The position numbers and the translations under genes were made by a program. Under the pieces are notes generated by a model. That model ran no database searches. It worked only from the letters and a program-made list of their open reading frames with translations, and had not been told where the DNA came from. DNA of 64,000 nucleotides, taken from NCBI GenBank assembly GCA_963792415.1, contig CAWBVY010000006.1, positions 792,582-856,581 of the forward strand, read 5' to 3'. Position 1 is the stretch's first letter, and each line of letters opens with the position of its first letter. Positions 42,806 to 42,884 of the stretch are shown in pieces. This stretch comes from Candidatus Deferrimicrobiaceae bacterium. GTDB lineage: Bacteria > Desulfobacterota > Deferrimicrobia > Deferrimicrobiales > Deferrimicrobiaceae.

Positions 42806-42884
42806 GCCTGACCGCTCCAGTTGAGCTGCGGACGCCCTTGGAGTTCGCCACCCGGGCCGTCACAGCCTCAAGCCGTTGTCAGGC
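42806..42884 (-). mobile_element. attC-like integron cassette recombination site (79 bp)
   Basis: Minus strand: R'' GCCTGAC (contains the TGA stop of the upstream ORF), L'' TTGAGGCTG with one extra base versus L' CAGCTCAA, R' GTCAGGC. Confidence 0.75.

Follow-up and report, generated by a model that had tools for sequence, protein, structure and literature searches.

The nearest laboratory parallel to the site described here comes from Frumerie et al. (2010), who engineered a GTC core, together with the complementary GAC, into attCaadA7 and attCVCRd (PMC2811028). With wild-type attI1 as partner and ordinary IntI1, the GTC mutants recombined at the wild-type level. When both partners were GTC, recombination was down 150-fold, and in vitro cleavage of VCRd-GTC was undetectable (PMC2811028). 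Among natural sites, the closest are the attC sites of sedentary chromosomal integrons, such as the Vibrio cholerae repeats (VCRs), which form lineage-specific and highly similar families with the arrangement R''/L''...L'/R'. They have extrahelical bases on the '' arm, are placed 3' of short ORFs that lack promoters, in long arrays with one orientation, and carry an R'' that complements the preceding R'. The closest category of locus is the CALIN (cluster of attC sites lacking an integrase), which has two or more attC sites and no functional intI; an intI pseudogene is found near 15 of 279 of these (Cury et al., 2016; PMC4889954).

The window, meaning the whole 64-kb stretch of DNA that was analyzed, contains two attC sites on the minus strand, which we call site A (42806..42884) and site B (43353..43428). 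They belong to a lineage-specific attC family of about 76 nt, probably of Candidatus Deferrimicrobium-like bacteria; the family resembles the VCR type in each of the respects listed above. The window differs from the VCR type in its high-GC Deferrimicrobium-like lineage and in holding a two-site remnant with a deleted intI, no attI and a GAC/GTC core. The window shares with a CALIN its two attC sites, the lack of a functional intI, and the presence of an intI pseudogene within 1 kb; here, however, decay in place can be traced directly through the related genomes G011, G001 and G017. Site A carries the identical double change to attCaadA7-GTC and attCVCRd-GTC, namely T3 to C and the complementary A to G, paired in the folded strand, and is a natural counterpart of that laboratory core change. 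The engineered sites are laboratory constructs studied in IntI1 assays, whereas site A is natural, recurrent and known from its sequence, and its local partner, site B, is itself defective (ATT). Site A is the last attC in what is left of a sedentary chromosomal integron with two attC sites, and we consider it probable that its GAC/GTC core reflects hairpin-preserving compensatory drift, not a new specificity.

The TIGR02249 cut-off for integron integrases is exceeded in 19 of 60 related genomes. The repeat adjoining these integrases is highly uniform, and reads GCCTAAC AACAGGCTGAAGCTGACGG ... CCGCAGCTTAGCCTGAGC GTTAGGC. A regular-expression scan for AAC...GTT hairpins was abandoned as a detector, since in DNA this rich in GC most of its matches were noise from coding sequence, but the first true members of the family, those in G017, came to light through it. 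A covariance model, R1, was then based on 11 attC sites, all from other genomes and none from the window, and the whole window was scanned with filters off. R1 matches site B at 43353-43428 on the minus strand with 67.4 bits (E = 1.5e-17), and site A at 42806-42884 on the minus strand with 36.6 bits (E = 2.6e-8), the plus strand of site A giving no match. The best background match, at 60460-60541, has 16.6 bits (E = 0.027). Site A, which the sequence-only reading had called attC-like, is thus a genuine attC by a model made entirely from its relatives. The imperfect palindrome at 43353-43428 and site A have TGAGCTGCG in common. Rfam and tRNA scans of the region gave nothing relevant.

The family itself is validated by structure and by its chain rule. 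In an alignment of 150 sites, double changes occur in 19 of 25 pairs, and 90.5% of cells are paired, compared with 25-40% once the partners are shifted along the alignment. In 76 of 127 cases, all four variable positions of an R'' are complementary to those of the R' before it; the R' of its own site achieves this in 25 of 127, and random partners in 10 of 127. This is the signature of crossover between the G and the TT of GTT. Members of the family were found in 56 of the 69 genomes of the taxonomic family, to which the attC family is essentially confined. A phylum-wide search of 400 genomes for the GAC...GTC pattern returned the known site in G076 and two chance matches only. For annotation, the gain is that Deferrimicrobium-like bacteria are shown to have many cassette arrays and an attC family specific to their lineage.

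Site A is matched by R1 over its full length (model positions 1-76), on the minus strand only. The plus strand reads GCCTGAC at 42806-42812 and GTCAGGC at 42878-42884, and the two are complementary at all seven positions. On the coding (minus) strand, R'' is therefore GCCTGAC at 42884..42878, and R' is GTCAGGC at 42812..42806. The strict consensus RYYYAAC/GTTRRRY is broken at the first A of AAC and at the last T of GTT, and every other consensus position of the R boxes fits. The claim made from the letters alone, that both boxes depart from the consensus at one shared paired position, is accurate. The nearby genes are all on the minus strand. The 148-aa ORF upstream ends GAA GCC TGA, and its TGA (42881..42879) lies inside R'', which had also been read correctly; a second attC, site B, lies 469 nt upstream on the same strand, making site A the distal (last) attC of a two-site array.

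Taken alone, an inverted repeat of 7 nt with this spacing falls short of significance, and the folding energy is not distinctive alone either, with z scores against shuffled sequences of -0.84 for the plus strand and -0.51 for the minus strand. The predicted fold of the bottom (plus) strand is more informative. The R boxes are paired (p at least 0.95) and the L boxes form an 8-bp stem, the central spacer is unpaired, and a bulged A and a bulged C occupy, as single bases on the 3' ('') arm, the places usual for the family. Folding had been proposed as a check on the sequence-only reading, and L boxes paired with extrahelical bases are what it gives. The predicted minimum free energy, -16.4 kcal/mol, equals the family median (rank 74 of 133). 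Upkeep of the hairpin has been imperfect, since the L stem has lost about 4 bp beside the central spacer. That an integron integrase could recombine site A is suggested by analogy with the engineered GTC/GAC attC and IntI1 (PMC2811028).

Site B has R'' ACCGAAC and R' ATTGGGC (43353-43359), in which the crossover G has become A, giving ATT for GTT. The closest homologous locus (L062, from Candidatus Deferrimicrobium sp., 86% nucleotide identity) has a canonical orthologue of site B, TCCTAAC/GTTCGTC, and the G to A change is therefore derived here. In IntI1 assays, a mismatch to the partner at the first base cuts recombination 1,000- to 10,000-fold (PMC2811028). By analogy with this penalty, the ATT of site B probably locks the 148-aa cassette in place.

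The ORF of this cassette (42879..43325, minus strand) encodes a Cys-rich protein with no match in Pfam and a weak resemblance to TIGR04076 (25 bits, under the cut-off). Homologues of the ORF were found at 40 loci (L062-L101). Relatives of the protein with 62-72% amino acid identity occur in Asgard archaeal MAGs (Freyarchaeota, Hermodarchaeota, Promethearchaeota), Syntrophales and other groups, and the majority of them are outside cassettes. The other cassette ORF encodes 66 aa (43453..43653, minus strand) and belongs to the 4-oxalocrotonate tautomerase family (PF01361, E = 1.3e-13, with matches to NCBIfam tautomerase models). Just past the last attC is a DJ-1/PfpI gene (42137..42697, minus strand; PF01965, E = 5e-46). 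R1 with filters off finds no attC downstream of it, and it may be a fossil cassette. Window positions 42132-42724 align with L065 3639-4231 (MAG chromosome CP070783), where the DJ-1/PfpI gene has 89% nucleotide identity; the homology covers the gene and 27 nt upstream only. The order in L065 is 148-aa ORF, GAC-type attC, an extra ORF of about 176 aa, and DJ-1. The GC content is 0.46-0.52 across 42500-43700, compared with 0.65-0.70 in the flanks.

The integrase gene next to the array survives as two remnants on the plus strand, divergent from the cassettes. The 5' part (43713..43886) comprises a conserved upstream region and about the first dozen intI codons, and has 84% identity by blastn to L025 983-1157, the integron of G017. 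The 3' part (43928..44026) comprises the last 33 codons, corresponding to the C-terminal end of Pfam Phage_integrase, and is 79% identical to residues 375-407 of the G017 IntI by tblastn. In the tblastn search with this protein, which finds these two pieces only, the 5' piece is matched at 43713-43985 to residues 49-142 of the frame. About 260 codons between the two remnants have been deleted. The presumed attI region was taken as the sequence between intI and the first cassette that is conserved between G017 and G001 (L025 1157-1485, about 330 nt); it is absent from the window, where homology ends at 43712. Because about 260 intI codons are lost and attI is gone, the array is not recombined by a local enzyme. 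The window has neither an intact intI above the TIGR02249 cut-off nor the attI region of a complete integron. What it has is the content of a decayed integron or CALIN: two R1 matches with no functional intI in the vicinity. Its intI pseudogene is about 285 nt away from site B and about 830 nt away from site A.

Related genomes show the same locus at other stages. The equivalent locus of G011, in the same orientation, has a fragmentary intI and a longer array, while in G001 the array is accompanied by no more than the intI-upstream region; the 5' piece of intI is kept in both. An 88-nt piece conserved with G001 was considered as an RNA gene and rejected, being this region upstream of intI. G017 has a full-length intI and an integron of the window's type, the comparison being one of type. 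Integron fossilization can therefore be followed at one locus across relatives, with the integrase deleted, attI lost and the distal cores drifting, and further out, genes left without any attC.

The GAC/GTC core was tallied over 169 sites of the family, with the window excluded. R'' carries AAC in 146 of these, two of which have GTC in R'. GAC is the commonest core variant (13 sites), and its R' is GTC in three sites on a strict count or in five on a relaxed count, which adds two sites with C at the paired position. The association of GAC with GTC has a Fisher p of 0.004 (strict) or 3e-5 (relaxed), on cases that are few, come from three to five lineages and are not all independent. A strict pattern search within the family finds four GAC sites only, which are too few to fill a 2x2 table. 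G076 and G011 each have a further copy of the exact pair GCCTGAC/GTCAGGC, and the CSP1-8 genome has ACCTGAC/GTCCGCC. In all three, the GAC/GTC site is the last or next-to-last detectable attC of its array. The GAC-type site of L065 is probably orthologous to that of the window. A search for further copies had been suggested from the sequence, with a unique copy as the outcome that would count against the idea; site A is not unique.

GAC in R'' is found at none of 48 sites in arrays adjoining full-length intI and none of 27 in the arrays of G024, and at 13 of 94 in other arrays (0/48 vs 13/94, p = 0.0035). The corresponding figures for R' other than GTT are 3 of 48, 0 of 27 and 23 of 94. The first base pair alone of the attC cleavage triplet varies in nature, with the pair kept, and within this attC family such core variation is seen only where no full-length integrase gene adjoins the array. 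Intermediates with G.T (5-6 sites) are commoner than those with A.C (2 sites). At the second and third triplet positions, AT to GC transitions number 0 of 150 in both columns.

A likely starting point for the variant is found in the stop codon of the cassette ORF. Homologues of the 148-aa ORF that retain an attC all have their stop codon within R''. In L063, L064 and L068 this stop is TAA, in the context GCC TAA C, whereas the window shares the form GCC TGA C with L062 and L065; since homologous cassettes read TAA or TGA there, the A to G change is a switch of stop codon from TAA to TGA. The TGA shared by the window and L062 implies that the change is old. More widely, TGA in R'' ends an ORF of at least 50 codons at 8 of 14 GAC sites, and TAA does so at 30 of 127. 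The cassettes with TGA stops in R'' are unrelated to one another, and include those for VapC-like and HigA-like proteins. The homologous cassette of G076 has a canonical attC, GTCTAAC/GTTGGGA, and an uncompensated GTC at its 5' boundary.

These observations suggest an order of events. In the first step, the leading A of AAC in R'', which in this cassette is the middle base of the ORF stop, would become G, in the GC-ward direction in a host of 65-70% GC. It would be tolerated because G.T still pairs with GTT. In the second step, the final T of GTT in R' would become C, converting G.T to G-C and restoring the R-box stem, with fixation either by selection or by repair bias. The predicted energies of site A are in line with pairing as the property preserved: GAC/GTC gives -16.4 kcal/mol, AAC/GTT -15.2, GAC/GTT -13.7 and AAC/GTC -12.9. 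Compensation in situ requires a long immobile period, because R' past the crossover formally belongs to the next cassette. As an evolutionary footnote, a stop-codon switch in R'' may in this way lead to a compensating change in R'.

Pure neutral decay would instead mean that two independent AT to GC transitions happened to fall at paired positions under GC pull, and that no force was keeping the pairing. Several findings count for it. Both core changes are GC-ward in a high-GC host, the variant is restricted to arrays not adjoining full-length intI, and the sites are old and low-scoring: the 36.6 bits of site A are among the lowest scores in the family, and AT to GC transitions have occurred at 2 of its 11 other conserved A/T columns. 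Because both changes are AT to GC in old, low-scoring sites, shared age could create some of the association between GAC and GTC. It does account for part of it, as stratification by score in a hand tally weakens the association and does not remove it (p about 0.003 below 60 bits, and a borderline 0.07 or so below 40 bits, on about 17 sites). Decay without regard to pairing is nevertheless unlikely, given the strict p of 0.004 without the window, the persistence of the association below 60 bits, the recurrence of the exact pair in G076 and G011, the 0 of 150 transitions at the neighboring triplet columns, and the rarity of A.C relative to G.T intermediates. Pairing could also have been restored with no selection at all. 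Template-switch mutagenesis in imperfect inverted repeats is an established process, and after an A to G change had left a G.T mismatch, intrastrand template switching at replication could have copied one arm and so introduced the complementary C. Such quasipalindrome correction would sit well with R boxes that match at 7/7 positions while the rest of the site decays. Two mismatched pairs in the L stem of site A were left uncorrected, and sequence alone cannot separate such correction from selection; we judge it very unlikely. The sequence-only reading had taken the double change to suggest compensation and not random decay. Its first half stands in that pairing is kept, the association is non-random (p = 0.004 or 3e-5) and either single change is predicted to cost 2.7-3.5 kcal/mol. 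Its second half is not supported, because the relic intI, the missing attI, the 0/48 against 13/94 distribution, the ATT of site B and the acceptance of such a core by IntI1 together point to tolerated, pairing-preserving drift in a decaying array.

That reading had also raised a cognate integrase of relaxed or different core specificity, which would serve GAC/GTC cassettes. One observation gives it some substance: in G011, the cassette after an R' reading GTCAGGC has GCCTGAC as its R'', so that this chain-rule cassette begins with GTC at its 5' end and carries GAC in R'' (L049 1537 to 883). The appearance of a mobile cassette is thus within reach of a GAC/GTC unit, and the notion that GAC/GTC never belongs to a mobile unit was dropped. 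The remaining evidence makes a shifted specificity extremely improbable. The intI of the window is internally deleted and its attI is missing; at the threshold used, no IntI was matched in G076, G006, G007 or G015, all of which have GAC sites, and G011 gave a fragment only; and GAC occurs at 0 of 48 sites beside full-length IntI. No intact IntI with its own array dominated by GAC/GTC was seen in the arrays sampled, from about 20 of the 69 family genomes, nor in covariance-model and GAC-pattern searches of all 69. Given a wild-type partner, IntI1 accepts attCaadA7 with the engineered core (PMC2811028), and because it recombines GTC/GAC in this way, an altered integrase is unneeded for one such site. 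Two such sites together make poor substrates, which may fit the piling up of GAC/GTC sites at the distal ends of arrays. The GAC/GTC site reveals no new recombination system. Alternatively, GAC/GTC could be a selected "anchor" allele: as in the IntI1 assays, such sites would recombine with canonical partners and hardly with each other, so that the cassettes they flank resist excision. Pairing would then be actively maintained, with the TAA to TGA stop switch as the entry point. If this were so, cassettes would be stably kept at the distal end of the array, and mobile cassettes would become fixed chromosomal genes. We regard such an anchor as doubtful, and retain hairpin-preserving compensatory drift as the preferred explanation.

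Some further observations concern the ends of the arrays. The last attC often has an R' other than GTT, such as ATA, CGT, GTA or GAT (L037 2904, L041 3059, L043 1205, L052 1460, L051 5141). The suggestion that the terminal TCAGGC is a conserved attI relic was rejected, because these same four triplets close other arrays and the DNA past R' is unrelated. In CSP1-8 (L066 480-2944), three to four ORFs lie past the last attC with no attC of their own, including the homologue of the 148-aa ORF. Together these arrays look like a gradient from active to fossil cassettes.

The attC family is shared by two clades of integrase within one bacterial family (L025/G017, L007 and L037/G027, L021 and L036/G024, L042/G061, L053/G066). 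In the G017-like clade, which includes the window remnant at 43713-44026, intI is divergent from the cassettes. In the second clade, at 41-52% amino acid identity, intI and its arrays point the same way, with the arrays on the downstream side. The distal end of the G027 array abuts a match to the end of a FAH gene, and the DNA beyond intI resembles the window at 53-58 kb; for these two reasons, the locus appears to be that of the window. From stop to stop, the frame of the G017 integrase spans 407 aa (L025 83-1300), and about 95 residues precede its TIGR02249 match. These are 85-87% conserved in G016 and G026, and could be an N-terminal extension or just conserved attI/promoter DNA (window 43713-43850). 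In-frame gaps are present in the integrases of G024 (C16 39606-40415, about 42 model positions) and G010 (C41 4725-5513, about 51). The G024 arrays are the most uniform and canonical of all, and the G010 array contains four GAC sites.
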